Source: an uncultured Elusimicrobia bacterium (GTDB lineage Bacteria > Elusimicrobiota > Endomicrobiia > Endomicrobiales > Endomicrobiaceae). Taken from it: a stretch of DNA of 64,000 nucleotides. Made by a program: the position numbers and the translations under genes. The stretch lies in NCBI GenBank assembly GCA_937916125.1, contig CALGGE010000066.1:27908-91907 (forward strand), read 5' to 3'. Each line of letters starts with the position of its first letter. Within the stretch, counting starts at the first letter, position 1. Of the stretch, positions 8,061-32,379 are shown piece by piece. The notes below the pieces were generated by a model, which saw nothing but the letters and a program-made list of their open reading frames with translations, was not told the origin of the DNA and did no database searches.

Positions 8061-8115
8061 TATAACCCCTTTCAAATTTCTTGTTTCTTTTTTATATATT
8101 ATGATATAAAATTAT

Positions 8116-12900: not shown

Positions 12901-15900
12901 CAACAATATCCTTTTTTACAACTACGCTTCCTTTTTCTTTTTCAAGATATTCCAATAATTCCGGAACATTTATCTCGTCCGTGTATTTTGTGTTTATAAA
13001 ATCCAAAACTTTATCTGCGAAAGAAATTTCTATATATTCAAATAAATCGGGTTCTACATCGAGTTTTTTTAAAATTTCTTCTATTCCCACAGGCGTAAAT
13101 CTTTGTGTTTTACCGTCAGCATTCTTTTCGTTATTATGTATTGAAAATATTGCCATTTTATTTACGATAAGGTAAAGGTCGGCAATAATGGCATCTAATT
13201 TATTATAATATTCCAAAGTATCAGCAATTATACTTTCTATTTTGTACGTCGGTATCGAAAATATATTGTCTCCCGATATTGAATATATTCTTCTGGCTAC
13301 TCTTATTGCCAGCTGATATTGACGTGTAATATCTTTTATGTCGTTTTGCTTACAGTAGTCTTCCATAGCCTTACTGAAAAACACCGACATGGAAAAAGCT
13401 TTGTTTTCAAGATCCAAAGAATCTATCCTATATGTTTCCAAATCATCAACCAGATCTACAAATTTTTGAAAATCAAAAGTTCTGCCGTACCGTACATCAA
13501 AATCACTGAATAACAAATCAATTACATATCTGTTATAAAATTCAACATATCTGAAATTTTCCAATATATATCCGTTAACTTTTTTCCCTTTAAAACTTTC
13601 AATATATTCTTCGGCAACTTCGCTGTTTTCTTTTAAATCTGCACGAGTGATCAATTTCATTAAATAATTAAAGTCTTCCTGTGTATAATTGAAATTTTCG
13701 GCAAGTATTAAGATAAATTTTAATTTTAACGGACTAAAAGATATACTATAATCATGTTCGGATTTTTTATAAAAATCAAATATAAGATTTCTGATTGATG
13801 AATTTAAATTTAAGAAATCGGATATATTTTCTCTTGTTTTTAACTCCGCAATAAATCTGTATTCGCAATAATTATACAATTTATCAAAATCGCTTATTGT
13901 ATATCCGTTTTTCTTTACGATATCCAAAAGAACCTGAAGCATAATTGAACTTATGTCGTCGGAATAAGTATCAAGTGCATACTCGTAAAAATCCGTAAAG
14001 CGGTTGCGTGAAATTTTGTCCATATTAAAAAACATATATATATATTCTTCTTTTTCAAGAAGAGTAATAATTTTGCAATATATTTCTTTTTGGTCATAAT
14101 TTATATTTGTAAATTCTAAAAGAAGTTTGTTTAATAAAGTCGTTGACGTTATTTGGTTGTTTCTTATATAATCGATTATATTTCTGTTGAATCCTGATGC
14201 TCTTACAACTTTATTTTGTAAATCTTTTACGTTTGCTTCTACGGAGGCAGAGTCCGCTTGTTTTTCGAATTCAATTTTGTTTTCTTCGGATAAAGCTTCT
14301 TTTCGTTCCGCATCATCCGTCTCTTCAAGGAAACTTATTATTTTTTGTCCCCTCTCGAATATCTCGAACGAGTCAAATATTTTATATAAATCATCAAGCA
14401 TATCGGAAATAAGAAGTAATGATTGTTTTGCCGTTCCTTTCTGCAACAAATCTATTACTCTTTGCAAATTCTCTTTATTGCTTATCAAAGTTTGTAAGTT
14501 TTTGATTTCTGACACAAGCTCCGGCGTAACTTTCTGTTTATGAAGGTCATCTACCGTTGCCTTAACGACTTCCGTTATTGTTTCTCGAATATCCCCTATA
14601 TCGTCACTTTCCAATATCTTTGCCGCAGCCAAATCCGAAATAAGTTGTATTCTTTCTTCGTCGTCAAGTTCGTTTATTTTCTGTTTCTGTTGAGGATAGG
14701 TAAGCCTATCATTTATTATCTGTTGTGCCGAAGGAGATATTGAGGCAACGGCAGGTGCTATCATTTGGAAAGATATTTTACTCTGTTCTTTTGCTATTTG
14801 ATAATATGTCTTTTGTGCAACATCTATACCATCGGAAACATTAGGTGTTATTACGATATAACTTACACCCTTTTCTTTCAACATTTCCGTTACGGTATTT
14901 GAATGGAAGCCTCCCGTTACAACAATATCCAACTTTTTAACATTTTTCATATTGGCAATAATTTTATTTATATCATTATCAGCTTTAGTATCAAAATGAT
15001 TTTCGGCAGGTTTGTTATCGTCATTGAACAAATTTTTTGCAAAATATAAATTTCTGTCATTGTTTATCTTATAGAACTTATCGGTTTCATCCATATATTC
15101 GTCCAACATGCTCAATACTCTGTTATCGGCATATTTATTCCACAACCGTTTATAAGTTTCTATATTTTCTTTGTAATAATTATAATCATCGGAAGTTATT
15201 TTACCTGTTACATAATCCCGCAAATATTTTTCAAAATTCGTCATAAAAACGATATCTCTTTGAACTTTCGTCTCGGAGAATCTTGTATTTATCTCTTCGG
15301 TAAGCTTGGCTTCTTCGCTTATCAAATCCAACGGATTTATTTTTTGACTTAATTCTATGTATCTGAAATATTTATCAAGTTCCGAATATTTGCCGCTTAA
15401 ATCCAAATTTTCCTGTCTGCACAGTTTTATTATGTATGTGTAAAGTTTATCGACTCCGGAAAAATTATCGGTATTATCAATTAACTGTTTGTAGGTGTTA
15501 TAAGGAAGTATTTGTTTCAGAAAAAACAACAAACTTTGCATTTGTTCCGTTATTTTTGAAAAATTAAGCCTGCTCTGCATATTGAGCAACATTATGTACG
15601 CAAAAGTATTTTCGTATTTTGTTAAATCTATTCCTAACTTATCTATATGTTTTGACAGTAAAGTATAATATTTTTGCGGTGAGAGTTTATCTTCTTTGAA
15701 TTTTTTTGAAAGGTTTTCAAGTTTAAATTGTCTCTTTGTATAATGTTGTTTTTTTAATTTTTGAGAATCTTCTTCAATCGCTTTCAATATTAAATCTATT
15801 TTTTCCTGATTTTCTATTATTTTACCGAATCTTTTTAAATTTTCCAAATAGGGTTCTTTTTCTTCCAATCCGTTTATTATTTCTGTTTTTCCGCTTTTTG

Positions 15901-16339
15901 CACTGTAATACTCGGCTCCTGTTAATCTTCCCGTTTCAAGGATTGTATCTAAAAGTTCTTCTTTTTTAGGGTTTTGGTTTATTTTGTCTGTCAACCAATT
16001 TGTGCTTACTTTACCGTAGGCACCTTCCAAATATATTTTGTTTATGCCGAATTTATTATCAAATGTTTCTATAATATTGCTTATATTTTTTTGTACTTTC
16101 GGATGACAGTGCAAATCCTGAATATTTATTATTACTCTGTCCGTTCCGGCATAATGAGCTTTTGTTATTTGTCCGTAACCGTACGGCAAAACAAAGTCAT
16201 CAAATATTTTACTATACCGATTTACTATTTCTTTGTTTATAATAATACTTGCCGTTGAAGGCTGAATTACAAATGATATTAACAAACTTATCGTTACAAT
16301 TAAAGAAATAAGTTTCTTAAATCTCATTATAATTTTCAT
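9977..16339 (-). CDS. giant membrane-anchored multidomain protein, paralog P1 (ChaN/TraB-like N-module; clan-CD-like His/Cys dyad; hydrophobic CPBP-like block; LLSAA tail)
   Basis: Start placed at MKIIMRFKK (GGAG 8 nt upstream); the track ORF extends to 16381. Signal/anchor peptide LISLIVTISLLISFVIQPSTAS. Motifs: INIQDLHCH (16103-16129), YLEGA, VVTGGFH (14903-14923), FIFDGHG...43 aa...SSCHS (12596-12748). TM block 11840-12070. No database search was run. Confidence 0.8.
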   Translation of the reverse strand: MKIIMRFKKLISLIVTISLLISFVIQPSTASIIINKEIVNRYSKIFDDFVLPYGYGQITKAHYAGTDRVIINIQDLHCHPKVQKNISNIIETFDNKFGINKIYLEGAYGKVSTNWLTDKINQNPKKEELLDTILETGRLTGAEYYSAKSGKTEIINGLEEKEPYLENLKRFGKIIENQEKIDLILKAIEEDSQKLKKQHYTKRQFKLENLSKKFKEDKLSPQKYYTLLSKHIDKLGIDLTKYENTFAYIMLLNMQSRLNFSKITEQMQSLLFFLKQILPYNTYKQLIDNTDNFSGVDKLYTYIIKLCRQENLDLSGKYSELDKYFRYIELSQKINPLDLISEEAKLTEEINTRFSETKVQRDIVFMTNFEKYLRDYVTGKITSDDYNYYKENIETYKRLWNKYADNRVLSMLDEYMDETDKFYKINNDRNLYFAKNLFNDDNKPAENHFDTKADNDINKIIANMKNVKKLDIVVTGGFHSNTVTEMLKEKGVSYIVITPNVSDGIDVAQKTYYQIAKEQSKISFQMIAPAVASISPSAQQIINDRLTYPQQKQKINELDDEERIQLISDLAAAKILESDDIGDIRETITEVVKATVDDLHKQKVTPELVSEIKNLQTLISNKENLQRVIDLLQKGTAKQSLLLISDMLDDLYKIFDSFEIFERGQKIISFLEETDDAERKEALSEENKIEFEKQADSASVEANVKDLQNKVVRASGFNRNIIDYIRNNQITSTTLLNKLLLEFTNINYDQKEIYCKIITLLEKEEYIYMFFNMDKISRNRFTDFYEYALDTYSDDISSIMLQVLLDIVKKNGYTISDFDKLYNYCEYRFIAELKTRENISDFLNLNSSIRNLIFDFYKKSEHDYSISFSPLKLKFILILAENFNYTQEDFNYLMKLITRADLKENSEVAEEYIESFKGKKVNGYILENFRYVEFYNRYVIDLLFSDFDVRYGRTFDFQKFVDLVDDLETYRIDSLDLENKAFSMSVFFSKAMEDYCKQNDIKDITRQYQLAIRVARRIYSISGDNIFSIPTYKIESIIADTLEYYNKLDAIIADLYLIVNKMAIFSIHNNEKNADGKTQRFTPVGIEEILKKLDVEPDLFEYIEISFADKVLDFINTKYTDEINVPELLEYLEKEKGSVVVKKDIVDYINRRKDQPLSKKTLLRYVKRMHVTETMVEANMFLHRIERFNEYGQEKGLFIFDGHGLDDEIFYSSGRGFTVKQISQALINAHDNGVNLRNITLMFSSCHSYKFAENVIKELINIGIDVFPQIITDAGKETVYAYTKTMDSDNKTIKVSNLFYSLIKLLDSKTPEELKQMNGKLSLKDVANAPRYLSNNTLFITNDQIDELNHSLVKSIRAVIEEDDDNKTTGRIYPIMEENGMYVDVNYNKYAQLMLPSTQNLLTKIGNSKIIKSIYKENSGKFFKTTKLGVAIGVLLETFVFWTPNFINAHNFPLSIQTKMTPVIWVIRALSIGIGIGTGSLFALFITETTAHFVWNYFATIKPSINNKFSEYVSGIIANIMPNLISKIKDVSYDTVKRVNLQYYTVSQFVSEIAGQMLFINELFDAVFKNRSGIFGIIDKNIVITEDYKQKDYLQSLAVAETNIIVVNMEIITEPTQTVRGGFILDVEKGIRVKYDKSDGKLTVYSKKGIDIDKRQLQDLITAAYYDTRKNDSFETAIVFADLEEQTLYSIQNKLKNEITNSITVPGKEIKLDISERNITDISAVCKNEEIASETKTFIISKAQAEKYNRELQRLQDAGYKFIISYDRSDEFSEVLFDGARIIAEDITEKEKALELLEKLKTIKLAKGIDTKISIKFSNEIYYGLYNVDIFDEYGIIPIVDDINGILFGKKEFDMSKLKNIERQISDDYFERILRMESFVSVVIDENTKMFINKNKSKFRRAETNEQKFKKGINAALSRKFDYTAKDVKQIIDSGILSVDIGNSNGYLREEILKLNLSLFSDDARTYIEYLTAKEKYEETVGFIRGVVMNTVAKNIANIIDIDENKLMKNIKTDTVQAILILTIQNILNGNTMEDIYKTKEIESEMTAKEFLDSIKIRLNGDLDNILRQNEYKITKVSPSAIADFTGIPELLMDTYGKKVSVVKSAEVSTQYIKSLLSAA

Positions 16340-16373
16340 ATTTTCTTCTCCAATAAAAAAACTTGTATTGTTT

Positions 16374-16913
16374 TTACACAATACAAGCCCTTTCTATATG
16401 TTTTTTATTATAATTTATTGATATAGATCTCGGTAAAACATTGAATAATATTTTCATCAGTAATAATAAAAAAACACTTAATCGCAGAGGTATTTTCAGT
16501 GGATAACTTTTTAATTCAGGTATAAAATTTGTTGAATTTTTTATTTTATATACAACAAAAATCAAGATTAAATTTAACATAGTAATTGTTAAGTTTGCCG
16601 TGCCTATATACTCGTTTATCTTTACAAAATTTTTGTTGCTATCTTTATTTGCTTTTTTTGTTTGATGTTTATTTTGTGCGGTTTGTGGAAACATTGTGGA
16701 TAAGACATCGATTGTCATATTTATTGATGCAAAAAATTTCCCTGCAACAGAACCGCTTGCCGAAATATTTTTCTTTTTAAAACAAAAAGACAAAGAAAAA
16801 ATATTCAACACAAAAAACAACACAACAAAAAACGATAATATTTTGGTTTTATAACCTGTTTCCATACTTAAATTATAATCTACAAACCTGATATTTTCAA
16901 GAATTTCTTGCAA
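16374..16913 (-). CDS. small hypothetical membrane protein (3 predicted TM helices), immediately upstream of P1
   Basis: 179-aa ORF with hydrophobic helices ILSFFVVLFFVLNIFSLSFCF, LTITMLNLILIFVVY and LSVFLLLLMKILFNVL. It is co-oriented with P1, with the stop 35 nt before the P1 start. I recognise no family. Confidence 0.5.
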   Translation of the reverse strand: MQEILENIRFVDYNLSMETGYKTKILSFFVVLFFVLNIFSLSFCFKKKNISASGSVAGKFFASINMTIDVLSTMFPQTAQNKHQTKKANKDSNKNFVKINEYIGTANLTITMLNLILIFVVYKIKNSTNFIPELKSYPLKIPLRLSVFLLLLMKILFNVLPRSISINYNKKHIERACIV

Positions 16914-17567: not shown

Positions 17568-20500
17568 TACGGTAAAGACTATGAGGCGGATAATATTTTT
17601 CTGATATTTTCGGTTATATTATCCCCGAAAATATAATCTGCAATTCTTAATATACCGGGATCAATTGCAGGACGTACGGGTTCAATTTCTTCCTTCTTAC
17701 AAGCTTTCATAAGCCCTGCGAGTAAAAGTCTTGCCTTATAAACGGTATCTTGTCTGTTATCCATATATCCTAAAGCATCTTTTGACAATATTGAAAAAGC
17801 TTCTTTAAACACCATTGAATCAGAATACAAACTGCCCGCCTTTACCTGAGAAGAATATAAATTTAAAATATTATTCCGTTTAGGACCTTGTTCATACTCG
17901 ATAAATTCATCCGGTTGTAAAGAAAAAACATCTTCAATATTCATTTTTTCCTTAAATAAAGATACGTGTGCCAACATTCCGTAAAAAATTTTCTGTCTCA
18001 TATCTGCTGCCTGCTGAGTATCTCTACTGACATACGGATTAACTACAAATTTAAAAACTTTGCCGAAATCACCCTGCTTGTATTTTCTTACAATATTTGC
18101 CTCGTATATTCCAAATAAAAAGCTGCTGCTTACGGAAATTCTTGTTTGTTTGGATTCCACAAAATAATCAAACAGATAAGAAAAATGTTCTTTCACATAA
18201 CTGCTTGCCGTAGTATCACTTTCGTTTCTTAATATCCTTGCTATTTCTTCCTCTTCCTGTTGAGATAAATTAACTTCCTGACGGGTTCCGTACTCATAAG
18301 CAAACCTCATTCTCTCTTTCATTCCTTTGGTTTCTTTAAACAATCTCATAAGATCCGATACGGCCTGTATTATATTGGAATTTTCTTTTGTATCTTCTTT
18401 TAATCGCTGTGCATATAACATATTTACCGGGATTATAAGTTTACCTATAGAATCACTGTTTATCACTTTCTGAAGAATTTCCTCAAGTCTCTCATCTATT
18501 ATATGATCCAAATAGACATCTTCCCCTTTTTCTGCAAGCAGAGCCAAACTTCCGGGATAACTGCCCTTAAGCAAAATACTATCTCTCTTGTTTGATAAAA
18601 ATACCAATCTTGTTTCATATTCCTGCTGGTCCTTATAAATTGAAATTTCATAATTCACATCGTTCATCTCCGACAAATCATATTTCCCTTCCATAAGAAG
18701 TTCTTCTTTACTTGATAAAGTTCTTGTAATTTTCAAATCATCAAAAAAATCTTTAAATTCATTCCAAACTTTATCGGCAACCTGAACAGAGATTTCAATA
18801 TCCGGAAGTTCATTTCTTATATTCTCAAAATCGTTTAAAACGGATTTAATATCTTCAATTGAACAATTTGCCAAGTCAAGTTTTATTCCGTCAACACCTA
18901 TATCATTTACGTCAACACTGATCGTTCTTACAAAAGTTTTAAAAAACTCGTCGAAAAATCTGAAAGTATATTCAAGCACCATTTTTTTACCGTTCTTATG
19001 TAAATTACCTGAAAGTTTGGTTAAATTTTCTTTTACCGTAGTTTCTCTGTTTAAAACACGAACATTTAAATTATTGTCTCTGATAACAACTGTTATAAAA
19101 TCTATATCACTGCCATTTAATATTTCAATAAATTCATTTTCTTCAAGTTCATTATTAAAAATATGTTCATCTGAAGCTATTTTTACACCTACATAAGAAG
19201 ATTTTTGCTCGAAAAATTCGCCGAAGAAAGATTTTCTCTTCAAAGCTTTAACGGCTTTTACATTTTCTGCAACCGCTCTCATATCTTCGGCAACATGAGG
19301 ATATTTCAAATCTTTTCTTCCTATTCTTGCAATAATATCTTCTATATTTACTACGGTATCGTATCCCATAACTTCCATTTCTTTTTCGTTTTCGGAATTT
19401 TTGCTTAAAACTACAGGTATATAAGTTTTGCCAAGAACCGACAGTGTCTGCCTTGCAGGTATTTGCGGAAACCCGTTAAAAGAAATAATACTGTTCTCTT
19501 CCTGTACTAAAAATTGCTTTGCATATTCCAACAAAACATCCTGCCAAATTAAACGTGTATCGGAAATTCCGACCAATATAATGATACCGTTATTATTTTT
19601 TAAAACATATACGGGTATTTTAACACCGTTCTTTTCCAAAATTGTCGGGTTACCATAAACTTCCTCTTCCAAAACGGAATTCTTAACGGGAACTATCGTT
19701 AAAGATAAAAAACCGAGTTTTACTTTAGCGTTAACGGCTTCTCTGATTCTTGCAATATCCAAAGTATCTGCTACATCCGACTCAATGGCAATCCAATTTC
19801 CTTTTTCAAATTTTGAGACCGTAGTATTAAAAAAACTTCTCACATTTGAATACAACTCTATAAAAACTCTCTTTAAATTGTCGTATATATACGTAACTTT
19901 ACCTTTTTTTATTGAAGGATTCTGAAGAAGTTTTTCCTCAACATTTAAATTTTGCATTTCTTCTCCTTCGTAAACATAAATTACATTTTCCTGCCATGGG
20001 AAACCTGCTTGAGTAAGCATTCTGTCAAAACTTTCCTTTCCATAATTATATGTAGCCATTAACGTTTCCAAATATGCCTGTTCGTTATGACCTCTGTTTC
20101 CCTCCGGGTACATTACTATCGTCAAACCGTCAATTTTTAAAACTTCTATTTTTTCAACATCTTTTGCCGTTGATCTTTTATACCAAACATCAAATATTTT
20201 ATCATCTTTTAAATCGCCGTAGATAATATCGGAAAATTTATCGGCAATAGAATCATCCTGAAAATAAACAGCAAGCTCTTTCAGCAAATATCCGGGCATA
20301 AATACAATAGAATCTTTACCGGACTTTGAATATTCCAATGCCTTATCCATAAAAGCTTTAAATTCTTCATTGGCTAAAATTTGCTCTTCCGGATGACTAT
20401 CATAATTACTTAATTTTTTATAGGTATATTTAACGGATTCCACGGGCCATATAAAAACAAATGTTTTATTTTCAAAATTCGGGAAAAAAGTCGTCAAAAC

Positions 20501-22110
20501 ATCTTTCAACCAATTGCGTTCTTTATAAGGGTATCTTATAATCGTTCCGTCAGATCTCATATAGTTGTGTTTATTCTGTCTGTTTACGGAAAACTTGGAC
20601 GGGAACAATCCGTAAAAAGGAATATCCGTATATAAAAATGTTGCAGATGTCATAATATCCGTAAACAAACTTTGAGACTCTTCCGACATAAAAAATGCGG
20701 AATCCTGTTCATCCAGCAGGGACATATCCAAGCATACATTTCGGTTCAACAATCCGTTACTTTCAAGAAACTCTTTAAAAGCTTTTGCATTTATTTCTTT
20801 ATTGGAAATAAAACTCTTAAATTTTGATATATCAGCATAAAAAACATTATTGCTATTGTAAATAAGTTCCGAACGTTCCTCAATTTTTTCAACATCAGAC
20901 CACTTTGTATATTTACCGTAAAAAACAATAACGGGATAAGTGTTGTCCCGGTTCCAATCTCTTTCAGAAGCCAAGAAAATTTTTCCTTTATTCAGTACGG
21001 ACACAAGTTCGTTTTTTTTCTTATCTGCAGAAGAAAAATCGGTTTTTAGAACTTTATATATTTTAATTATACCGTTTTCTCTTACAACTTCAAAGTCTCC
21101 CTCTGCCTGAATATCAATATCAAGCTCACCGATATCCGTCATATCAATATCTTTAACCGTAACGGATGTTTTATCGGAACAATTTATTTTAAAAATACTG
21201 CCATCAGGTATATAAACATTATTCAATGTTATTGTACCGTGCAGAGAAACTTCGGCATTTTGTTCGATGACGGTATCAACAAATACAACCTTTTCCAAAT
21301 CAGTATCTTTCGTATCGGCACCGTTATTTACCAGACCTTTCTTTTTTACTTCTTTAGTGTAAGCAGCTCCCCCGCCCGGAACGGCACCGACAACAAACAT
21401 CATCGGAAGCATTAAAACCATCTTCGTAAACAGCGACAAATTTCTATGTAAACGTTTTATTCTTCCCGGCTTTTGGGAACCCGTACTATTATCGACAAAT
21501 TCTTCTTCCCGTAAATTTGTTATTTCGTTTCTGTTATTGATTTCCTTTACGGTATTTTTCGACACATAAAACAGACGTTCTTTATTCTCAGACAAGAACG
21601 TCAACAAAAATCCTTTTTCGACAACTTCAATATTTTTCAGAACGGTATCATCGTCTAAACCTTTGGCATTAAAAATATCGGAAATATATTTTTGAACGAC
21701 AGACACATTTTCTTGTACCGTTTCAATATTCTTGTAACGGTTAAAAAGTTCACTGAGCAAATCATAATCCAAAAAGCCGACTGCTATAACCTTTGTAGGA
21801 TCATCCCAACTTTCGTTCATCAAAGAACTTCTTATAAATTTCTGATACGTATTGTTCAATATTGAAAGCTGTCTCATATAATCTTCATAAAATTTACTCT
21901 TACTTTCAATAACATCAACAGATTTTACGTTAGGCATAATAACGGCATAATTGATATCAAGTCCGTCCATAAGTTGTTTCATTCCGCGACTGTGATATCC
22001 TCCGGTTATTATGATATCTACAGGCTGATCCGTAGTTTTTAATATTTCTTCAAAAGACATTCTGTTATTATTTTTTATAACGGCTCTGTTTGCCGATTCT
22101 TCTTTATTTA

Positions 22111-22117
22111 TTTTTTT
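22111..22117 (-). other. A AAA AAA slippery heptamer followed by a 0-frame TAA, at the junction of P2 fragments B and C
   Basis: The minus strand reads CGG TTT ATA ATA AAA AAA TAA. The -1 frame continues ATA AAT AAA GAA GAA TCG ... directly into the 1,493-aa ORF. Confidence 0.7.
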
Positions 22118-22838
22118 ATTATAAACCGTCTCAAGAATATCAAATTCTTTTCCGTTAAAGTTTGTGAGAAAGATGAATATAAATCGGTTAAAATGATTTG
22201 TTCTTCATTTAACAATTGTACTAAATCAATATCATTCTTATTTTGCAAATAATCACAAAATATATAAAAATTTTTATATTTTTTACCGTAATTTTCATCA
22301 GAAGAATTATCATCCAAATATTTTTTTATTTCTTTATAGTATTGTAACGGATAATTCTTATTCAACTCTTTTATTTTTGAGTATTTATGATATGTCATTT
22401 TGTCAGCAAGAACGATGTTTATATCAAACAACTCTTTTTTAACTTTATTAAAGTTCAAATCTTTATAATATTTTTCCAAATCCAAATACTTTCTTATTGT
22501 CTTATATTTAAATAACGGAATATTTCTCTTTTTAGAAAGAGAAACAAGATATGAAAAATATTTAGACTGTGAAATGTACCCTTTCTTATAGCAATCAACA
22601 AGTTCGTCGAGACTTTTGACTGCAAAGCTGCAGACAAATGTTTTGGCATCATTTAAAACAGACGATATATCGAAAATTTTATTTTCAAGTAAAATTCTGT
22701 TTTCATATATTTTTGACAATATAATAAAATTTTCTTTATAAATATTTTCTTCTTCCAATCCCTTAAAATTTATTTTTTCGTTTTTATTAAAAATTCCGAA
22801 ATATTCCGCACCTGTTATTTTACCGTCAGTAAGCATTT

Positions 22839-22902
22839 TGTAAATAATATTGTTTCTGATTTTTTCATCTTGTAAATAATATTGTTTCTGACTTTTTCAT
22901 CT
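22839..22902 (-). repeat. 32-bp tandem duplication that frameshifts P2
   Basis: Plus strand: TGTAAATAATATTGTTTCTGATTTTTTCATCT (22839-22870) and TGTAAATAATATTGTTTCTGACTTTTTCATCT (22871-22902), with 1 mismatch. Removing either copy joins ...DEKVRNNIIYK to MLTDGKITGAEYFG in frame. Confidence 0.9.
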
Positions 22903-23286
22903 TTTACGGCTTTAAGCCAGTTGAAATCCAAATCTTTTACGGCACCCTCAAGATATATATTTTCAACATTATAATTTTTTGTCAAAAAATCCAAAATTAC
23001 GGCAATATTTTCCTGAGTATTTTTATCGGAGTGCAAATCCTGTATATTAATCAACGTTTTTTCGGCACCTATATATACATCATCAATAACCTTACCTAAG
23101 TCGGCGGGGATAAAATAATCCGCATTATCAACACTTACGGAAGTAATATTTACGGGTGCAATAACCGATGCACAAATATCACAACATATATAATTAACAA
23201 TACAAACCGTTAGAATACATGAAATCAGTTTTTTGTAATTATACATATTTTCTCCGTGCTGCAAAATATATAAAAATTTTACTGTT

Positions 23287-26200
23287 TTATGCTGCGGAAA
23301 GAATATTTTTAATATTATCAATATATCCGTCGGACTGACCGAAGCTCGATGTATCAAATTCTTTTATTGTTACAGGCAATAAGCCTATTTCTCCGCTCTT
23401 AAAATTAAATATACCGCCGTTTAATTTAGCCAACACCGTGCGATCTTTGTTTATTCTGTTGACAAGTATATTTTCCAATACACCGAAACCTAATAATTCT
23501 TCATATTCGGAAGGAATAATAAACCTTGCACTTTTTTGTTCTCTTGTTTCCAAATATACGGGTATGGACTGCGTATCATTAAGAGGGTTGGGAAGATGAA
23601 TAAAAGCCTGTTGTTGCGAATCCGCATTCCCCGCACTTAATGATATTTCATATTTAGTGTCATGTTGGACCGTAATAACATTTTCTTCCGAAACATCCTC
23701 TTCATTAACTGCATTTGTGGTAACAGGTCTTCTTTGAAGAATAAAAAGTTTACCGTCTTTAAATCCGAATTCAACATCAACGGCATAAAAAACATCGTCT
23801 TCCAATAATAACAGAACTTTAATAAGTTGTTTTATTTCTTCATAATTTAAAGTTCTTTCTTTTGCACCTTTATCCACAAAAGTTAATTTTACGCCTTCCC
23901 GTGTTGAAACTATTTTATAATCTTTGGTTGCAACGGAGTACTCCAATACATTCCCTGTTTCCATATTTACGGTTATTGTATCGGGAGTAAGTTTTCCCGA
24001 AACTATACCCTCTCCCAGTCCGTAAAGAGTTTCTATTGTGGTATTCCCGTATTTGTCTCTGCTGAAAGCAACTCCCGACTTATCAACATCTATCATAGTC
24101 TGTACCAACACCGCAGGAGAAACGATTTGTCCGCTGTTTATCATATATTTTATGCTTCTTTCTGAATAAAAGGATTCCCAACAGCTCAGCAAGGCATCAA
24201 AGAGATTTCCTCTGTCAACATTCAATACTGTTTCCCCCATACCGGCAAAAGCATTGTTTGCACTGTCTTCTCCGACACCGGAAGAACGTACGGAATATTT
24301 TGAATCTCCCAACGTTTTTAAAACCATATCTTCCAGTTCTTTCCTTAAAGAATCGGTTTCCTTAATTTTATTTTTGGAGTTTTCAATAAGGGAGATTATA
24401 ATTTTTGCGAAATTTTGAGCTAACTGATATTCTCCGTTATTTATCGCATTTTTAAAAGATTGTGAAAGCATTAAAAATTGTTGTTTCTGTCCGAGCATAT
24501 CAAAGAACCTCACAAAAACATCATAACTTATGCCTACACCTTCGGGAACAACTACATTATCTTCTTTTTCCAACAATCTGTGTATTTTTGCCAGTTCAAC
24601 GGTTTTAGAACCGAATTTATAAGAATCCCGTTCATATATATCATCAAAGCTCAGGATATCTCCTTTCGGACTATATACTCCGTAATTATAAGTACCGTAG
24701 AGTCTTAATTTTAACAGGTTTATAACATTTTCCGTATCGGTTTTTAATTCCTGCAAATAAGCATCTTCTTCAGTTTCCGGTATAAACATTTCATTCACAT
24801 TTGCCAATTGCAACATACCGACAATCTCATTTAAATCTTCCGGCAAATATTCATATTTTTCCAGCATAGTTCTGCATTCTTTTAAAAATACTTTCAAAAA
24901 TACAATTAAACTCTCTTTCGTATTTTGTGAAATTTCAAAAACTTCTTTTCTAATCATATCCAATTCTTGTCTGTATTCCGGAGATTTTATAAACTCCAAT
25001 TTCTCAAGCAAAGTCCTTACTATGGAATAGGCTATATTAGGATTGGCGGTTGTTTCCAAATTAGTTACGGCTTCATTCATAACTTTTACTTTATCCTGAA
25101 TATAACTTTCGTTCAGTTCTTTAATTTTATCTTTTATGGTTTGCGGCATATCCTGAGCAAAAAGCATATCCAAAGTTTGTGCCATTCGCGTATCACCGAT
25201 AGTTTGAAAATATATATATTCAACAATTCTTCCTATATTTTCAGCAACCGAATTTTTTATTAAGAAATCTTTTATATTTTCGGCGTCATCTTTTTCTATA
25301 TATGACTGTAAAAGTTTTAATGTCGAATCTTCTATATCGTCAAAAAGAAGTATATGTCCGGTTTCTCCGTTTAATAAAATAATAGAACCTTCACGTAAAA
25401 TTTTATCTTTGCTTTTGACTTTTCTTATACTTAAATTACCCAATTGAAAAGGATTTCCCGAAGAATAATAACATAAAATATTCAAACCCTTATCTTTCCA
25501 ACTTGCACCGTTAATAATAACCGACGGAGTATGATATTCCCTTGTAGTAATTGCGGCATGGCTTAAAACTCCTCCGCTTGTGGTTATTATTGCTTTTGCG
25601 GTTTTAATTCTTTCTACATCGTCGGGCGTAGTATAAGGTGCTACAAAAATGCTGTTTCCGTCAACATTATTCTTGTCAAACGTTACATATCCGGAGACAT
25701 ACGTACCGTTGCCTGCAGATATAGGTACGGCTCTGAGTTCCGGAGAGGAAAGGTTCTGTGTTTGTCTGTGAAGAAGATTGCTTATTCTATCCTGTTCCGA
25801 CGGACTTAACAGTTCCTGCCGAGGAATATCAAAACCTTCGTTACGTAAAATTTCGTAAAGTTCTTCAAATGTAACGGATTTTCTTCCCGAAAGAGAAACA
25901 TATTCCACAACGGAATATTTTAACCTTTTTATGGATGGTTTCGTAAGTCCTTTTACCGATAAAAAATCGCCGTTTTGCAGTTTCATATAACCGCTTACCG
26001 CCAATAAATCACCTATGTAACCGATAGTTTTGAATTTAAAGTTTGTATTCGGAATAAGGTTTATCAATTTACTTTTATTTATAGCGGCTTCTTCATCATC
26101 GGAAACGGCTTCCGCCAAATAAGAAACAACGTCATAATCTTTGTTTCTGCTCAATATACCGTTCTCATTCAAAAAAATTCTTCCTACGGCAAAACTTCTT

Positions 26201-29200
26201 TCTATAACATTATTGAACATATCATCCAACACATTTTGGGTTACTCTGAATCCAAACTCTTCAGGTATATCGTCGATCAAATCCAAAGATTGCAATACTT
26301 GTTTTAACCAATTCTTATCAAGGGAATTTCTTTGCGGACGAGCGGTAATTTTGTTTTCCGGCCATCCCGTAACCCCGTTCGGCATATATCCGTACCAAAT
26401 ATCTCCTTCCATAAATTTTTCAACCAAACTGTCAAAAGTTCTCCTGTAAGAATCCTCGCTGTATCTGTTGGACAATTCATCCAAATCCCAATCAAGCATA
26501 ACGGAATAACTGAACAAAGATACAACTTTAGTTGCAATATCTATAAAATCCATATCTTTATTAAATCCGTAATCCGTACTTAAAGTTGCTTTTAAACTGT
26601 ATGCGGCATCATTGCCCGCAGGTCGATTTATATCATTTTCCACAAAGAAACCGAATTTTTCCAATATCGTCGAGAAATATCTTATTCTTTCGGCGTTTCC
26701 GGTTTTCTTATCGCTTTCATGATAAGAGATGGTTATGGTTTTATCGGTATCAGCAAAATTCATAAATATATCAACACTGTGTGCAAACAATCTTGTCGTC
26801 CATACCAACAAATTATCCATACAAATAAAATCATCTATCTGATATTCATGTTTCTCTGCGGTTTTTTGTCGCGGGAGCTTATTTTGGGATAATCTTCCAA
26901 TAAAATCAAGTATATCCGGATTTAATTTATTTTCCGACAAATCATAAAGTTCCACTCCCGTTCTATCCAAACCGCCGGTATCCGAATATCCGATTGAAAT
27001 ACGAGGATTTCGATGAACGGCAACAACCGTTTTTATTGCTTTATCGCCTATTTCTATAATATCCTTTACTGTCTCTTTGAAATCCGAGATCGACGTTTGA
27101 TGAACCGCATTTATAAGAGTATGTATTTCGGTTATTTCCTCTATATGTTCGCTGTTCCATTGTTTTAAAGCCATATTCCGTTTTATCATATCTTTTGTCA
27201 AACTTGTCGTAAATAAAAGTTCTCCGTCCTGTTCCGGACGTATCGACAAATTATATAAAATATTGTTCAATGCGGTACGTGCATAATTCCCGTGTTCGGG
27301 ATTTATTAAGCTTAAAGATACTATCATTTTAGATAAAATTTTTACAAGTTCCGCAAAATCTTTTTCGGGATTTTTCGATGCAGACAAACCGTCAAGCAAA
27401 GATAAAACAAGATTGTTGTCATTAAGTATCGACTGCAAAGTATTGAATTTATCTCTTATTATCGCAACTTCTTTATTTTGTTTATTCGTAGTTCCGCTTA
27501 CGGTATAAAGTATGGGCGGTTCCTGCAAAATTATATTACCTGAAGTAAACATATCTTTAGGCAAATATTTTATGAGACGGGAAAATCTGTATTGTCCTCT
27601 CATCTCCGAAACAAACGCATCGGATACCGGCTTCAAAAAATAAGGAAGGTTGTTTTCCTCACATAATTCATTAAGCCTGTTTATGTCAAACAGATTATAA
27701 TTCTGCAAAGAAATATACAGCTCGGTCGAAGCCATATTAACAAGTTCGGATATAACATATCTTCTTGTTTTGTTATCAATATTTTTATTTTCCAAAATTA
27801 ACAACAATTTTTTTATTACGGATATTGCCAATACACGTCCGTTTTCTTTTTTACCGAGCAAATCATTACAAAACGACGATAAATCAAATAAAGTACAGTT
27901 ATCGACAACAATTTCCGCAAGGTCTTCGACATCGGATATAAGACTGTCTTTTTCAGGTAGCGGAATGCTCACATTCTTAATATTTGCTTTATAAACCGCA
28001 TCAACAAATCTTTGAAGCGTTTTCCTATTTAATCCCGGACCGTATATTGTACTCGTATCGTCATTCCAAGAATTTCTCTTGGCAGGATCTTCAACACCCG
28101 TATTTGCAAACATATAAGAATAAACAGAAATGTTTTTGGGATTTTTTTTCGAAAGTTTTTCAAACACATTATAGAACGTTTTTTCTCTTGATACGTATTC
28201 CAGAGAATTTTCATCCAAAGTATTTTGAGCAATCGGAGTATACACGACAAGGAGAAGCCGTTCCGTTATACCATTGCAAATATAGGTGCCGAAATCTTTA
28301 ATATCATTATCTTCCGAATTATAAAATTTACCGGAAATATCCATCATACCGTCAAGCAATCCGTAGAATTTTTCATTGTCGGAATTAACATCATACGAGT
28401 CAAACAGTATTTTAATCAAACTGTCCAACATCGTTTTTACGGTTCTTGTTCCGGTTTTCTTTTTTACTTTTGTAAAATCAAAAATAAACGGCAAAAAATA
28501 AGTTATACTATCTTCTTTTTGTTCCTCTTGTTTCAATATTATTTTCAACAACTCTTCCAACAATGTTTCCAGAAGGATACTGTTGCCGTCGTTAATTTTT
28601 TCAGCCAATTCTTCCATATTTGATAAAATTTCGGATACTCTTTCTCTATCCTGTTCCGCCGTAAAAGGTAATGCCTTTTCTCTGAAAACTCTGACATTAT
28701 TCGAAAGACTTTCGGAAAGAGATTTATCGACTTCTTTACCATCGGAAACGGCAAAATAATATTGTTTTAATGCATCATAATCTTTCAAATTATTTTGAAT
28801 TTGATACGGAATATCTTCATCTTTGGAAATAAATTCTCTGCTCAACAATTTATTTATTCCGTAAGGAATAAAATCCGAATTAATTTTATATGTTTCTCCG
28901 ATAAATTTGGAAACGTCGGCTAAGACAATATATTTGTCTCTTAATTTTCCTTTATGTATAAACAGAGAATCAACCATATGATAGAAAAAAGAATTGTTTG
29001 ATTTGTAAACATCTTCAAGTGCTATGAAAGGAATTAAAGAAAAAAGTAAAAAATCACTCATGTAAAAACTGCCCCAATTATCTATACCGTTCTGCTCGCA
29101 AAAAACTTTAAGCTTTCCGTAAACGGTAGAAACATCATTATAGTCGCCGTCTCTGAAATAATATTGGGGTTGATAATTGTGTCTGTTATTTTCTTTTACC

Positions 29201-32200
29201 AAATCAAGTATGGCATCTATTTGTTCAACGACGATTTTATATCTTTCAACTTTTTGTTCGGGCAAATTCGATAAATTTTTTATAATCTTTTTTACTTCGG
29301 CATAATCATATCCGTCAAGTAACGACAGTATTTCAATTATCCTGTCAACAACACTTTGTTCAACAACCGGAACGTCCGACATTTGTTCAATGTCTTTGGT
29401 TTGATAGAATTCATCACTTAATTGTTCTTCTTCATTTTTATCATCTTTGCTGCCGGTTATAACGGACAACATATCATTAAACCGACCTCGTGTTAAAGCT
29501 CTTATATTATATATTGAATGTAAAACGGTTGTAACAATCGGTGCCAAAAGCATATACTGAGGGAAAATAAACGACAACACTATATAAATCCAAGTCAACG
29601 ATGTTGCCGGAGAAAGCAAATCTTTCCAATCTCTTTTTTGGGAACTTTTTGTAATTATATCGTTCAACGTATGTGCGTAAGCAAATCCGATTGTTCCGGT
29701 AAATGCGGTTACAATCGCAGGAATTATCGGAAAAGGAGTTGTAAATACAAACGTGGTCAGCAAAATAAAAGGTGCGGCTCTAAAAATACCTTCTTCAATT
29801 ACTGGAGCGACAACAATTGTATAAATTAATCTGACAACATCACTTGCGTTCTTAAAAAAATTTTTCGCTATTACCAAAGGTTGACTTTTAGGATAAATCC
29901 TTGTCGTTAAGAAATCCTTGTCTCCTGTAGAAGATACATATCCGCCTTTCAACGTAAAAGATGTCTTTATTTTAGCAAGTTCGCCGGCTTTATTTATTTC
30001 ATAAATTTTTTCGTTCAGCAGTCTTATAACTTCGGCAAGTTTTTCCTTTGCCTGAGGCGTATCCTGAAAAAGGGATTCATCAAAAATTCTTCCTATGGTC
30101 ATATGCACTATTTTCGGAACTCTGTAATTCGGATCAAGATTTTCAAAATCTTTACGCAAGTTCAACATTTGTGCAATCAAATCCGTATCGGTAATCGTAT
30201 AAATTAAAACACCGTCGGGCATAAGCTTCAATGTACCTGCAAGAGATGTTTTAATACTCGGAAAAGTTTCTCCCAAGTTTTGGGTTGCCGCAAAAATGGA
30301 ATGAGTTTTGTTTTGATAAAGGAAGGACTCATCCATTTGTTGCGGCGTTGCACCTGACGAGTCATAGCCCACCGTCATGTGCAGTTGTTTATAAGGCATT
30401 AAGGAGACGGCGTCTCCCGATATTTCGCTTAAAGGTTTAAGAATATACCTGTATAATTTTTTCCTTGCCGATGTTGCAGGTTCAAGCTCTAAGGACGGAG
30501 CTGCATATTTATTTGCTTTAATCCTTTTAATCATATTAACGGTTTTTTCGATATCAATATTCGCATATTCCTTAATTTCTCCGTCGGAATAAATATAATT
30601 TATCGTACTTTCGGTACCTTTGTTAGCGTTATCTCTGTATTTAACAACAAACTCCACATTGCCAGTTTTAACTTCCGAAGATAAAATTTGCCATTCCAAA
30701 ATTTCAACATTACCGTAAAAAGTATTTTGTTTATCAATAATTTTTTCCGCTATAATTTGATAAATTTCCCGCTTTAAATCTTCTTCGGAATAATTTTGAA
30801 AAGCCTCACTTTGTACGGCATAAAAAAAACCTTCCATTACTTTCCTAAAACTGACATTTAAAGGTTCTTGCGTCAACGGTTCTATGTTTATGGTATTTTC
30901 AAGTATTGAAGAATAATATAAAACATTGTCCGTATAAAGTTGTCTTGCCGCTTCGGTTGATTCCGTTACTTTCGGAGTTATTATTACGTAAGATACTTTC
31001 TTGTCCAGAAAAATTCTCTCCAGTCCTCTTGTATGAAATCCTCCTGTAACAACAAGCGATATTTTCCTTGAAGGAGTTTGCGTCGAAAAATCGGAAGATT
31101 GACGAATGGCAGAGAAAAAGATTTGATCTCTCAAAATATTGTTTCGGTGATACTTGGACAGCAAGTCATAATACGTATCCAAACTTTGTATCGGTTGACT
31201 CGGCAAATACGACGGCCAAGTTGTCTTGAATTTTTTGTACCCTTCTTCAAAATTATAATATTCATCCGAAGAAATTTCTGCGGTAAAATAATTTCTTATT
31301 ACGGGAACGAACTCTGCAAGAAAATTAACTTCTTTTTCGTATTTTGTTCTTCCCGCTTTTATGTAAAGTTCATTTATAAAATCTTCTTTTTCTTTTACAA
31401 GTTCTATCGGATTTATTATGTCGCTTACGGCAAGCGAAGCAAAAAAACTTTCAAGATTCTTAAGTTTTAAATTTTTGGTTATTTCAAATTTATTGTTAAG
31501 TTTTATTAAATCGTAAGAAATATTTTCAAAATCGGTAAATTTATTACTTCTTTTAAAAAGTTCGGAGTAGCCGTCATAGTCAAGCTTATTTTTAAGTGAT
31601 GAAACAAAGCGGGCAAATTCACCGGAGATTTTCCCGTTATTTATAACATCGGTTTTGTCAAACAATGAAATATACAAAGATAAATTTTTATATTTTTCAA
31701 CTGAAACATCAAGATCTTCGGCAAGCCTGATTAATTCATTATAAAAACTCTTCGTCTTAATTTTTTTATTATCATACAAACTTATAATTCGTTGTATCTT
31801 TCTCGCTTTAGGGCTTGCATAATCTTTCCTGACTGAATTTATCTCTTTTTCAATATTTTTGCATACGGCTTCAATCTCTGGAGAAAGTGTTATTATTTCT
31901 CCCAACAGTTTAATATTTTCTTTATATAAACTTTCATTTTCTATACCGGCGACAAAATTCTTCTTATTTTTTATCGTTGAATAATATTCCGTTCCGCTTA
32001 AATTACCGGAATTCAAAAGATTTTCTACGATTTTTACACCGAATTTATTATCTTTCAATTCCGAAAGCCACGAAGTATCGACGATATTAAATGCTCCTTC
32101 CAAATAAACCTTATCAAGTCCGTATTTTGTATCGAGATATTCCAATATCGAAAAGATTTTCTTCTGTGTTTCGGCGTGACAATGAAGATCCTGAATATTT

Positions 32201-32379
32201 ATGACAATGTCCCCGTCATCAAAAATTTTTGACGAAGTTATTTTTCCCAAAGATGAGGGTATGAATTGTTGCATACCGTCAGAGAAACGTGCAGGCACGG
32301 CAAAACCGCCCTTTGGAAACAGTGTAATAACCAAAGAAAACGAAATCATTAAAGAAACTATCTTTTTAATCATTTTCAT
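23287..32379 (-). CDS. giant membrane multidomain protein, paralog P3 (ChaN/TraB-like N-module, 2H phosphoesterase, CPBP intramembrane protease, phosphohistidine swivel domain, PPDK-type ATP-grasp, ILSAA tail)
   Basis: 3,030-aa uninterrupted ORF. Signal peptide: MKMIKKIVSLMISFSLVITLFPKGGFA. N-module motifs: INIQDLHCH (32176-32202) and VVTGGFH (31033-31053). 2H motifs: LHMTVGY (30364-30384) and VHMTIGR (30088-30108). CPBP motifs: EEGIFR (29779-29796), FAYAH and HSIYN (29506-29520). Swivel domain: TTSGGVLSHAAITTREYHTPSVI, with His at 25558-25560. ATP-grasp: FGSKTVELAKI...VRSSGVGEDSANNAFAGMGETVLNV...GLGEGIVSG (about 23700-24690). Confidence 0.85.
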   Translation of the reverse strand: MKMIKKIVSLMISFSLVITLFPKGGFAVPARFSDGMQQFIPSSLGKITSSKIFDDGDIVINIQDLHCHAETQKKIFSILEYLDTKYGLDKVYLEGAFNIVDTSWLSELKDNKFGVKIVENLLNSGNLSGTEYYSTIKNKKNFVAGIENESLYKENIKLLGEIITLSPEIEAVCKNIEKEINSVRKDYASPKARKIQRIISLYDNKKIKTKSFYNELIRLAEDLDVSVEKYKNLSLYISLFDKTDVINNGKISGEFARFVSSLKNKLDYDGYSELFKRSNKFTDFENISYDLIKLNNKFEITKNLKLKNLESFFASLAVSDIINPIELVKEKEDFINELYIKAGRTKYEKEVNFLAEFVPVIRNYFTAEISSDEYYNFEEGYKKFKTTWPSYLPSQPIQSLDTYYDLLSKYHRNNILRDQIFFSAIRQSSDFSTQTPSRKISLVVTGGFHTRGLERIFLDKKVSYVIITPKVTESTEAARQLYTDNVLYYSSILENTINIEPLTQEPLNVSFRKVMEGFFYAVQSEAFQNYSEEDLKREIYQIIAEKIIDKQNTFYGNVEILEWQILSSEVKTGNVEFVVKYRDNANKGTESTINYIYSDGEIKEYANIDIEKTVNMIKRIKANKYAAPSLELEPATSARKKLYRYILKPLSEISGDAVSLMPYKQLHMTVGYDSSGATPQQMDESFLYQNKTHSIFAATQNLGETFPSIKTSLAGTLKLMPDGVLIYTITDTDLIAQMLNLRKDFENLDPNYRVPKIVHMTIGRIFDESLFQDTPQAKEKLAEVIRLLNEKIYEINKAGELAKIKTSFTLKGGYVSSTGDKDFLTTRIYPKSQPLVIAKNFFKNASDVVRLIYTIVVAPVIEEGIFRAAPFILLTTFVFTTPFPIIPAIVTAFTGTIGFAYAHTLNDIITKSSQKRDWKDLLSPATSLTWIYIVLSFIFPQYMLLAPIVTTVLHSIYNIRALTRGRFNDMLSVITGSKDDKNEEEQLSDEFYQTKDIEQMSDVPVVEQSVVDRIIEILSLLDGYDYAEVKKIIKNLSNLPEQKVERYKIVVEQIDAILDLVKENNRHNYQPQYYFRDGDYNDVSTVYGKLKVFCEQNGIDNWGSFYMSDFLLFSLIPFIALEDVYKSNNSFFYHMVDSLFIHKGKLRDKYIVLADVSKFIGETYKINSDFIPYGINKLLSREFISKDEDIPYQIQNNLKDYDALKQYYFAVSDGKEVDKSLSESLSNNVRVFREKALPFTAEQDRERVSEILSNMEELAEKINDGNSILLETLLEELLKIILKQEEQKEDSITYFLPFIFDFTKVKKKTGTRTVKTMLDSLIKILFDSYDVNSDNEKFYGLLDGMMDISGKFYNSEDNDIKDFGTYICNGITERLLLVVYTPIAQNTLDENSLEYVSREKTFYNVFEKLSKKNPKNISVYSYMFANTGVEDPAKRNSWNDDTSTIYGPGLNRKTLQRFVDAVYKANIKNVSIPLPEKDSLISDVEDLAEIVVDNCTLFDLSSFCNDLLGKKENGRVLAISVIKKLLLILENKNIDNKTRRYVISELVNMASTELYISLQNYNLFDINRLNELCEENNLPYFLKPVSDAFVSEMRGQYRFSRLIKYLPKDMFTSGNIILQEPPILYTVSGTTNKQNKEVAIIRDKFNTLQSILNDNNLVLSLLDGLSASKNPEKDFAELVKILSKMIVSLSLINPEHGNYARTALNNILYNLSIRPEQDGELLFTTSLTKDMIKRNMALKQWNSEHIEEITEIHTLINAVHQTSISDFKETVKDIIEIGDKAIKTVVAVHRNPRISIGYSDTGGLDRTGVELYDLSENKLNPDILDFIGRLSQNKLPRQKTAEKHEYQIDDFICMDNLLVWTTRLFAHSVDIFMNFADTDKTITISYHESDKKTGNAERIRYFSTILEKFGFFVENDINRPAGNDAAYSLKATLSTDYGFNKDMDFIDIATKVVSLFSYSVMLDWDLDELSNRYSEDSYRRTFDSLVEKFMEGDIWYGYMPNGVTGWPENKITARPQRNSLDKNWLKQVLQSLDLIDDIPEEFGFRVTQNVLDDMFNNVIERSFAVGRIFLNENGILSRNKDYDVVSYLAEAVSDDEEAAINKSKLINLIPNTNFKFKTIGYIGDLLAVSGYMKLQNGDFLSVKGLTKPSIKRLKYSVVEYVSLSGRKSVTFEELYEILRNEGFDIPRQELLSPSEQDRISNLLHRQTQNLSSPELRAVPISAGNGTYVSGYVTFDKNNVDGNSIFVAPYTTPDDVERIKTAKAIITTSGGVLSHAAITTREYHTPSVIINGASWKDKGLNILCYYSSGNPFQLGNLSIRKVKSKDKILREGSIILLNGETGHILLFDDIEDSTLKLLQSYIEKDDAENIKDFLIKNSVAENIGRIVEYIYFQTIGDTRMAQTLDMLFAQDMPQTIKDKIKELNESYIQDKVKVMNEAVTNLETTANPNIAYSIVRTLLEKLEFIKSPEYRQELDMIRKEVFEISQNTKESLIVFLKVFLKECRTMLEKYEYLPEDLNEIVGMLQLANVNEMFIPETEEDAYLQELKTDTENVINLLKLRLYGTYNYGVYSPKGDILSFDDIYERDSYKFGSKTVELAKIHRLLEKEDNVVVPEGVGISYDVFVRFFDMLGQKQQFLMLSQSFKNAINNGEYQLAQNFAKIIISLIENSKNKIKETDSLRKELEDMVLKTLGDSKYSVRSSGVGEDSANNAFAGMGETVLNVDRGNLFDALLSCWESFYSERSIKYMINSGQIVSPAVLVQTMIDVDKSGVAFSRDKYGNTTIETLYGLGEGIVSGKLTPDTITVNMETGNVLEYSVATKDYKIVSTREGVKLTFVDKGAKERTLNYEEIKQLIKVLLLLEDDVFYAVDVEFGFKDGKLFILQRRPVTTNAVNEEDVSEENVITVQHDTKYEISLSAGNADSQQQAFIHLPNPLNDTQSIPVYLETREQKSARFIIPSEYEELLGFGVLENILVNRINKDRTVLAKLNGGIFNFKSGEIGLLPVTIKEFDTSSFGQSDGYIDNIKNILSAA

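Follow-up and report, generated by a model that had tools for sequence, protein, structure and literature searches.

Does a giant protein of an uncultured Elusimicrobia bacterium really join a 2H phosphoesterase to a CPBP-type intramembrane protease, and if so, what kind of protein is it? The question is raised by a stretch of 64,000 nucleotides (nt) from contig CALGGE010000066.1 of GenBank assembly GCA_937916125.1 (positions 27,908 to 91,907), which we call the window and in whose coordinates all positions are given. One of its open reading frames (ORFs), here P3, runs on the minus strand from 23287 to 32379 and translates into 3,030 amino acids (aa) uninterrupted by stops. An original prediction, made from the letters alone, had read in this protein two H-x-T-x motifs of the 2H superfamily followed by three motifs of CPBP proteases. 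We find that P3, which comes from a member of the Endomicrobiaceae living in the ruminant gut, truly bears a very divergent 2H-type phosphoesterase domain and, directly after it, a CPBP/Rce1-type membrane protease core.

23287..32379, minus strand: P3, giant modular protein (ORF translation; 100% identical to public protein P0002)

The H-x-T motifs of P3 lie on a 2H phosphoesterase fold

The two H-x-T-x motifs of P3 are found where they had been predicted, 92 residues apart, and chance does not account for them. In all 3,030 aa there are exactly two occurrences of the pattern hydrophobic-H-hydrophobic-[TS]-hydrophobic, where 2,000 shuffles lead one to expect 0.2, and only 0.1% of the shuffles produced a pair of H-x-T motifs with a spacing of 60–130 residues. 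The motifs, and the domain and linker to which they belong, are placed as follows:

29875..30507, minus strand: 2H phosphoesterase-fold domain, aa ~625–835 (AlphaFold2; Foldseek; LigT structures first in the profile ranking)
30364..30384, minus strand: 2H motif 1, LHMTVGY, aa 666–672 (H667, T669), on a beta-strand in the AlphaFold2 model; kept in 9 of 9 covering orthologous loci
30088..30108, minus strand: 2H motif 2, VHMTIGR, aa 758–764 (H759, T761, invariant R764), on a beta-strand in the AlphaFold2 model; H-x-[TS]-x-G-R present in all 10 orthologous loci
29839..29889, minus strand: linker with a conserved amphipathic helix, aa 831–847, consensus LxIL..lFKN, joining the 2H domain to the first membrane helix (alignment; AlphaFold2 helix at lower model confidence)

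Homologues were gathered in several ways. A word-indexed search with aa 600–1000 as query returned a single partial Elusimicrobia protein, in which all motifs are kept, and one queried with the 2H alignment returned no matches. An exhaustive HMMER search with aa 1–1010 of P3 recovered many relatives, among which local iterative searches found the 2H-like module 19–22 times and the membrane module about 30 times. Seventeen copies of the 2H module were aligned (alignment A2), and this alignment was the input to the AlphaFold2 model, the profile search of the Protein Data Bank (PDB) and the Pfam scan.

The AlphaFold2 model of aa 618–848 has a predicted local distance difference test score (pLDDT) of 90.2 and a predicted template modelling score (pTM) of 0.83, and both H-x-T motifs sit on its beta-strands (E49–54 and E140–146). 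When the model was compared with the PDB using Foldseek, the top 50 entries included the AKAP18 central domain, Pyrococcus and E. coli LigT, Usb1, Deinococcus and Arabidopsis CPDase, ASCC1, phage Acb1 and MHV ns2, with a probability of about 1.0 for the top 49, a best E-value of 6.6e-6 and template modelling (TM) scores of up to 0.65. We take nearly all of these 50 entries to be 2H proteins; a few carry no 2H label (2fsq, 1iuh and mitoribosomal chains). In the profile search of A2 against 177,635 PDB sequences, two Pyrococcus LigT structures (1vdx, 2fyh) rank first with an E-value of 0.016, and the 'LHxT' and 'HxTxGR' motifs are aligned in register; a search of the same kind using a 2-sequence alignment gave no meaningful match. 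Pfam detects LigT_PEase weakly in 4 of the 17 copies (best E 0.0039), and AKAP7_NLS and 2_5_RNA_ligase2 in one copy each.

The predicted fold, its Foldseek neighbours, the LigT ranking and the conservation described below together bear out the 2H assignment. The profile check that had been proposed for it failed at curated thresholds, an outcome which the original prediction had itself counted as grounds for giving the assignment up, and it was structure prediction that settled the matter. The segment first proposed, 29480–30460, needs a small correction, as the 2H domain starts near aa 625 (~30507), slightly beyond the upper coordinate. On its modelled structure, the region of residues ~625–835 is a 2H superfamily member that falls outside all curated 2H families and forms a new divergent clade, and its two intact, conserved H-x-T dyads make up a predicted phosphoesterase active site.

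Comparison with known 2H proteins shows how far the domain has diverged. LigT (ThpR), a 2′,3′-cyclic phosphodiesterase / 2′-5′ RNA ligase (1vdx, 2fyh, 4qak, 5ldi), has the same fold (Foldseek E 3e-5 to 1e-3), with LHxT on strand 1, H-x-T-x-G-R on strand 2 and a motif spacing of about 90 residues, yet identity is about 10–15% and the P3 domain stays beneath every curated threshold. The P3 domain is also longer, at about 215 aa with an extra long helix past motif 2, against about 180 aa in LigT, and it forms part of a membrane protein of 3,030 aa; LigT, by contrast, is free-standing and soluble. The best structural match is the AKAP18 (AKAP7) central domain (2vfy, 2vfk, 5jj2; TM 0.58/0.65). AKAP18 and P3 both embed the 2H domain in a larger protein, and the AKAP18 scaffold binds 5′-adenosine monophosphate (5′-AMP) via its HxT motifs; unlike P3, AKAP18 is eukaryotic and has no membrane protease partner, and its identity to the P3 domain is about 9–11%.

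The hydrophobic block is a CPBP/Rce1-type protease core

The three CPBP motifs likewise occur in the predicted order and at the predicted positions, and the hydrophobic block that carries them is real, as confirmed by Kyte-Doolittle hydropathy peaks at aa 848–953. The ordered triple EExx[FLIVM]R / FxxxH / HxxxN-D arose in 0 of 2,000 shuffles of P3.

29485..29847, minus strand: CPBP / Rce1-like four-helix intramembrane protease core, aa ~845–965 (Pfam; hydropathy; pattern of Lys and Arg)
29779..29796, minus strand: CPBP motif 1, EEGIFR, aa 862–867 (E862 invariant; module and orthologue alignments)
29671..29685, minus strand: CPBP motif 2, FAYAH, aa 899–903 (F899, H903 invariant; same alignments)
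29506..29520, minus strand: CPBP motif 3, HSIYN, aa 954–958 (H954 invariant, N958; same alignments)

Pfam PF02517 (Rce1-like), for which the gathering score is 22.4 bits, reaches 24.5–24.8 bits when the segment is scanned by itself, with an alignment over positions 4–91 of the 93 in the profile, and 18.3 bits, below that cut-off, across the entire 3,030-aa protein. It matches 21 of 24 related modules (best E 5.7e-8), and homologues carry the NCBI names 'CPBP family intramembrane metalloprotease' or 'glutamic endopeptidase'. The CPBP assignment is borne out by these results; a profile built from the CPBP alignment gave no meaningful match in the PDB. Judged by its motifs and profile matches, the region of residues ~845–965 is the predicted four-helix catalytic core of a CPBP/Rce1-type glutamic protease, with E862, H903, H954 and N958 intact. 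MmRce1 (4CAD), of the PF02517 'Abi' family, has EExxxR, FxxxH and HxxxN in the same order on a four-helix core; MmRce1 has eight transmembrane helices, while P3 is predicted to have only the minimal four-helix core, which in these giant proteins serves as a module that is internal and can be repeated.

The hydrophobic block could in principle be merely a membrane anchor that has lost its protease function. The borderline whole-protein score of 18.3 bits would agree with this, as would the few related copies in which motif 1 is incomplete (P0012, with EN and ET; P0023, with EG). Against such a loss, the equivalents of E862, F899, H903 and H954 (E32, F69, H73 and H124 of the alignment) are invariant in 24 modules that share 22–43% identity, EExxFR / FxxxH / HxxxN are kept in every orthologous locus covering each motif, and an anchor alone would not preserve intramembrane polar residues, which makes loss of the protease very unlikely. 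A more radical doubt is that all the motifs arose by chance in a long ORF of low guanine-cytosine (GC) content and that P3 is related to neither family: H-x-T-x is short, and the curated 2H models are silent on P3. This is refuted by the shuffles, the high-confidence 2H fold, the Pfam CPBP matches and the conservation, and we give it a negligible probability.

The ORF P1, elsewhere in the window (9977–16381), had been said to keep a degenerate version of the membrane block. Our results do not support this: a profile of 29 CPBP modules scores only 2.1 bits there, at the AHFVWNY helix alone, and Pfam finds nothing in P1.

The 2H–CPBP pair is conserved within a modular family

GTDB species representatives were scanned using a 2-sequence 2H–CPBP alignment as the query, which yielded 10 loci with the same 2H–CPBP order as P3 at 42–69% identity. 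All come from ruminant-gut Endomicrobiaceae or Elusimicrobia metagenome-assembled genomes (red deer, sheep, goat, yak; 'Ca. Ruminimicrobiellum'). Wherever a motif is covered, the catalytic residues of both modules are kept in these loci, so that the His/Thr residues of the 2H domain and the Glu/His residues of the CPBP core pass the conservation check that had been suggested for them.

Further towards the C-terminus, P3 carries a third enzymatic unit, of the dikinase type:

25690..27942, minus strand: conserved region, aa ~1480–2230, directly before the swivel domain in every supermodule (module mapping)
25360..25659, minus strand: mobile (swivel phospho-His) domain of phosphoenolpyruvate (PEP)-utilising enzymes, aa 2241–2340 (Pfam PF00391, E 3e-12)
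23692..24615, minus strand: PPDK_N ATP-grasp nucleotide-binding domain, aa 2589–2896, after the swivel domain (Pfam PF01326, E 2.6e-51)

The best PDB sequence matches of the PPDK_N unit (5hv1, 5hv2, 5fbs) were deposited as 'phosphoenolpyruvate synthase' and are presumably Listeria rifampin phosphotransferase. A swivel domain followed by an ATP-grasp domain is the order of plant glucan, water dikinase (GWD). The C-terminal unit of P3 shares the swivel phospho-His and PPDK_N ATP-grasp domains with relatives of GWD and rifampin phosphotransferase, and differs from them in having no PEP/pyruvate TIM-barrel and no carbohydrate-binding module, and in being tethered to a CPBP membrane core. Its upstream region of ~750 aa is unrelated to known substrate-binding domains; this conserved region (aa ~1480–2230) would be the putative substrate-binding part of the dikinase.

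Across the relatives, these elements recur as a supermodule: CPBP, a variable stretch, the conserved region of ~600–750 aa, the swivel domain and PPDK_N. There is one copy in P3, two in P0005 and P0012, and three in P0009. The 2H domain is placed between the N-terminal domain of these proteins and the first CPBP core in about 11 clusters and is missing in at least 11 others, in which the N-terminal domain leads straight into CPBP; P0021, P0023 and P0024 have two or three 2H copies, none beside a CPBP core. This arrangement identifies the 2H domain as an optional cassette and CPBP as the first element of the supermodule. CPBP is coupled to the dikinase more tightly and more generally than to 2H. 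The 2H–CPBP pairing is real and conserved within the ruminant-gut clade, and it is one combination in a modular family, not a unique fusion. The back-to-back arrangement in a 3,030-aa protein, which had been called unusual, is therefore to be read differently: the adjacency stands, but both modules are interchangeable blocks of a large family of giant proteins. Neither a 2H–CPBP nor a CPBP–dikinase architecture turned up in a literature search; each module by itself comes from a known superfamily. Precedents for CPBP proteases fused to or working with other machinery are exosortase E/protease (VPEID-CTERM, TIGR04162) and myxosortase. The match of P3 to TIGR04162, at the EE helix, is insignificant (E 0.55), and P3 has no exosortase domain or sorting-signal context; unlike P3, the exosortase E and myxosortase systems have no 2H or dikinase partner.

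The family also bears on whether the 2H domain of P3 is catalytic. Among 19 paralogous copies, 5 have lost a catalytic His (motif 2 to Q, N, Y and Y; motif 1 to F), and these retain both the fold and the G-R that follows motif 2. Together with the dispensability of 2H in many relatives, and with top structural matches that are AKAP18 central-domain entries, one of them an AMP complex, this would suit a non-catalytic nucleotide-binding or regulatory module like that of AKAP18, which may sense AMP (the dikinase product) or another nucleotide. We consider this unlikely, if conceivable, for P3 itself: its dyads are complete, the 10 orthologues keep both H-x-[TS] dyads where covered at 42–69% overall identity, which is the pattern of an active site, and the other structural neighbours that we recognise (LigT, Usb1, CPDase, Acb1, ns2) are enzymes.

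Membrane topology of the CPBP core

The original prediction had proposed a topology analysis to place the 2H domain on one side of the membrane or the other. Four lines of evidence (hydropathy, charge, dikinase placement and MmRce1) agree on a four-span core, which would put it on the face of the protease cavity. The only conserved hydrophobic segments of the P3 family are an N-terminal one and the CPBP cores. In 29 modules, the mean number of K+R is 2.97 before helix A, 0 in the A–B turn, 4.72 in the B–C loop, 0.03 in the C–D turn and 3.97 after helix D, an alternation that fits four membrane spans whose two flanks share the positive side. In P0009, P0005 and P0012, ATP-grasp units stand immediately before and after internal CPBP copies, which puts both flanks in a compartment that contains adenosine triphosphate (ATP). 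The cavity of MmRce1 opens to the cytosol, with E140 about 10 Å from the cytosolic face and R145 deeper (PMC5874806); on that geometry, helix A of P3 would run outward from the flank side, H903 and H954/N958 would be near the flank side, and the orientation of helices and catalytic residues would fit transmembrane helices TM4–TM7 of MmRce1. The four-span core would thus hold the 2H domain, the B–C loop and everything downstream, including the dikinase, on one face, and by analogy with MmRce1 the protease cavity probably opens on this side. As the dikinase requires ATP, the shared face is most likely the cytoplasm. A five-span reading that splits helix A was rejected, as successive dikinase units of P0009, P0005 and P0012 would then alternate between faces.

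About 140 aa past the CPBP core, P3 has an isolated hydrophobic segment at aa 1103–1121 (29019–29075, minus strand; GSFYMSDFLLFSLIPFIAL; Kyte-Doolittle 1.57). A fifth transmembrane helix at this place would resolve the topology conflict described below; it was rejected as the segment is not conserved in the orthologues, and the segment is probably a buried helix.

The N-terminus of P3 has features of its own:

32290..32379, minus strand: signal-peptide-like N-terminus, aa 1–30, MKMIKK followed by a hydrophobic stretch and GFA/VPA (GFA|VPA); hydropathy, with the same pattern family-wide

N-termini resembling a cleavable Sec signal peptide are found in P3 and in 98% of 128 relatives, with 3.1 K/R before and 0.74 after a hydrophobic stretch of 15–20 residues, and with A-x-A-like ends. 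These N-termini could mean that the whole of P3 is exported, the CPBP modules being in-cis processing or membrane-insertion elements of a secreted polyprotein and the enzyme cassettes acting outside, for example in a host or prey cell. In line with this, the CPBP modules punctuate the chain between enzyme units, and Elusimicrobiota are host-associated and rich in huge proteins (PMC11573180). Several findings speak against export: four strongly hydrophobic helices per module should halt the chain in the producer's membrane, the K/R distribution sets the flanks on the positive-inside face, the ATP-grasp dikinases and the radical-SAM and AAA domains named in relatives need cytoplasmic cofactors, and no secretion-system genes were found nearby in the window. 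Taken together, export of the whole protein appears decidedly unlikely.

A related scenario, which we hold to be equally improbable, is that the giant proteins are polyproteins in which the CPBP cores, up to three and each before a dikinase unit, would cut the chain in cis into membrane-tethered enzymes, the new 2H clade among them, with the Sec-type N-terminus and the N-terminal domain directing envelope assembly or export. This would amount to MARTX-like autoprocessing by way of a glutamic intramembrane protease; that the protease cuts its own giant chain is speculation.

A proposed mechanism for a membrane-anchored multi-enzyme

Weighing these readings, we think it likely that P3 is a membrane-anchored, modular giant multi-enzyme, of a family so far seen only in Elusimicrobiota, and this judgement covers the 2H and CPBP assignments, the supermodule and the following mechanism. 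The 2H domain would be held about 15 residues from the membrane, beside the mouth of the protease, where it could hydrolyse a cyclic-phosphate or phosphodiester bond, or bind a nucleoside monophosphate as AKAP18 does. The CPBP core would double as chain anchor and peptide cleaver, its peptide entering from the shared face. At the other end of the chain, the C-terminal unit would phosphorylate a substrate bound by the conserved upstream region, passing the phosphate from ATP to phospho-His to substrate by the route of the water dikinases.

A number of points weigh against this proposal. Pfam and NCBIfam, run on the whole of P3 and on the isolated 2H segment, gave no 2H family even at E<=10, and an AlphaFold2 model of the combined 2H and CPBP region from a 2-sequence alignment was of low confidence (pLDDT 38, with four helices). 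No substrate or activity can be inferred from the sequence for the 2H domain of P3; its best structural neighbour, the AKAP18 central domain, is a nucleotide binder for which, to our knowledge, no catalysis has been demonstrated, and the paralogous copies that lost the catalytic His indicate that a 2H fold can persist without catalysis. The Sec-like N-terminus would place the N-terminal domain and the 2H domain outside the cytoplasm, in contradiction to the cytoplasmic assignment above. Finally, all homologues of P3 are derived from metagenomes.

The N-terminal domain and the giant-protein family

P3 shares one further region with other giant proteins, including two encoded in the same window:

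30820..32277, minus strand: conserved N-terminal domain, aa ~35–520, a fold without match in profile searches of Pfam and the PDB (also present in P1 and in the split P2 gene)

This domain of ~480 aa, with the invariant motifs QDLH(C)H, EG, TGxEY and TGGFH, has no counterpart among Pfam families or PDB sequences. A total of 5,716 representative clusters contain it, most of them of proteins of 2,000–7,400 aa, and wherever the source names a taxon, it is Elusimicrobiota; the family is thus probably specific to this phylum. The names that the sources give to proteins of the family point to further enzymes embedded in them (PEP/pyruvate-binding, radical SAM, AAA ATPase, phosphoglucomutase, sugar phosphate isomerase, HEAT). 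Judged by these searches, the N-terminal domain is an undescribed signature domain of the giant-protein family. A guess from DLHCH, EG and TGGFH that it is TIKI/TraB/GumN-like was dropped, as the Pfam and PDB profiles gave no support.

P1 and P3 have only the N-terminal domain in common, at 27% identity; in P1 it lies at 14800–16300 on the minus strand. Between the two genes is a third paralogue, P2 (17579–23357, minus strand), in three ORFs (22815–23357, 22108–22836 and 17579–22060) that jointly span the N-terminal domain in order. At its first break, a 32-bp tandem duplication (22834–22903; 2.2 copies, 94% identical) shifts the frame, and P2 is therefore a pseudogene, unless the break is an artefact of assembly or sequencing. 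In its N-terminal domain, DLHSD replaces the DLHCH of the other paralogues.

The literature describes Elusimicrobiota as host-associated and as enriched in huge proteins that are still uncharacterised (PMC11573180). For one subfamily of these proteins our results give a first domain map, composed of the ~480-aa N-terminal domain seen in 5,716 clusters, CPBP–dikinase supermodules that can be repeated, and cassettes that are optional, among them 2H. They also define a 2H clade that is invisible to curated profiles, fused to an intramembrane protease and membrane-proximal, which adds to the known contexts of 2H enzymes, until now soluble roles in RNA repair and nucleotide signalling. The close link between CPBP and the dikinase points to a phosphotransfer machine coupled to the membrane. 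We regard the result as a solid annotation and a useful lead; it resolves no open question.

Genomic setting

The window is chromosomal: it contains the trp operon, obg, L21, birA, tilS, phoH and mscL, and its GC content is 30–37% over most of its length. The GC content reaches up to 42% within an ORF of 5,562 aa (46986–63674, minus strand), in which Pfam detects no significant domain and which does not resemble P3; the interval of 48–52 kb combines this elevated GC (0.42) with a strong negative GC skew and AT skew. A role in anti-phage defence, with Abi-type CPBP and 2H effectors, was dropped as a reading of P3: PADLOC defence models gave no match to P3, P1 or P2 at E<=0.01, and the neighbours are housekeeping genes (trp operon, obg, birA, tilS). 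Elsewhere in the window, a 23-bp tandem repeat of 2.8 copies (8115–8180) is intergenic between an AAA-type ATPase ORF and a small plus-strand ORF.

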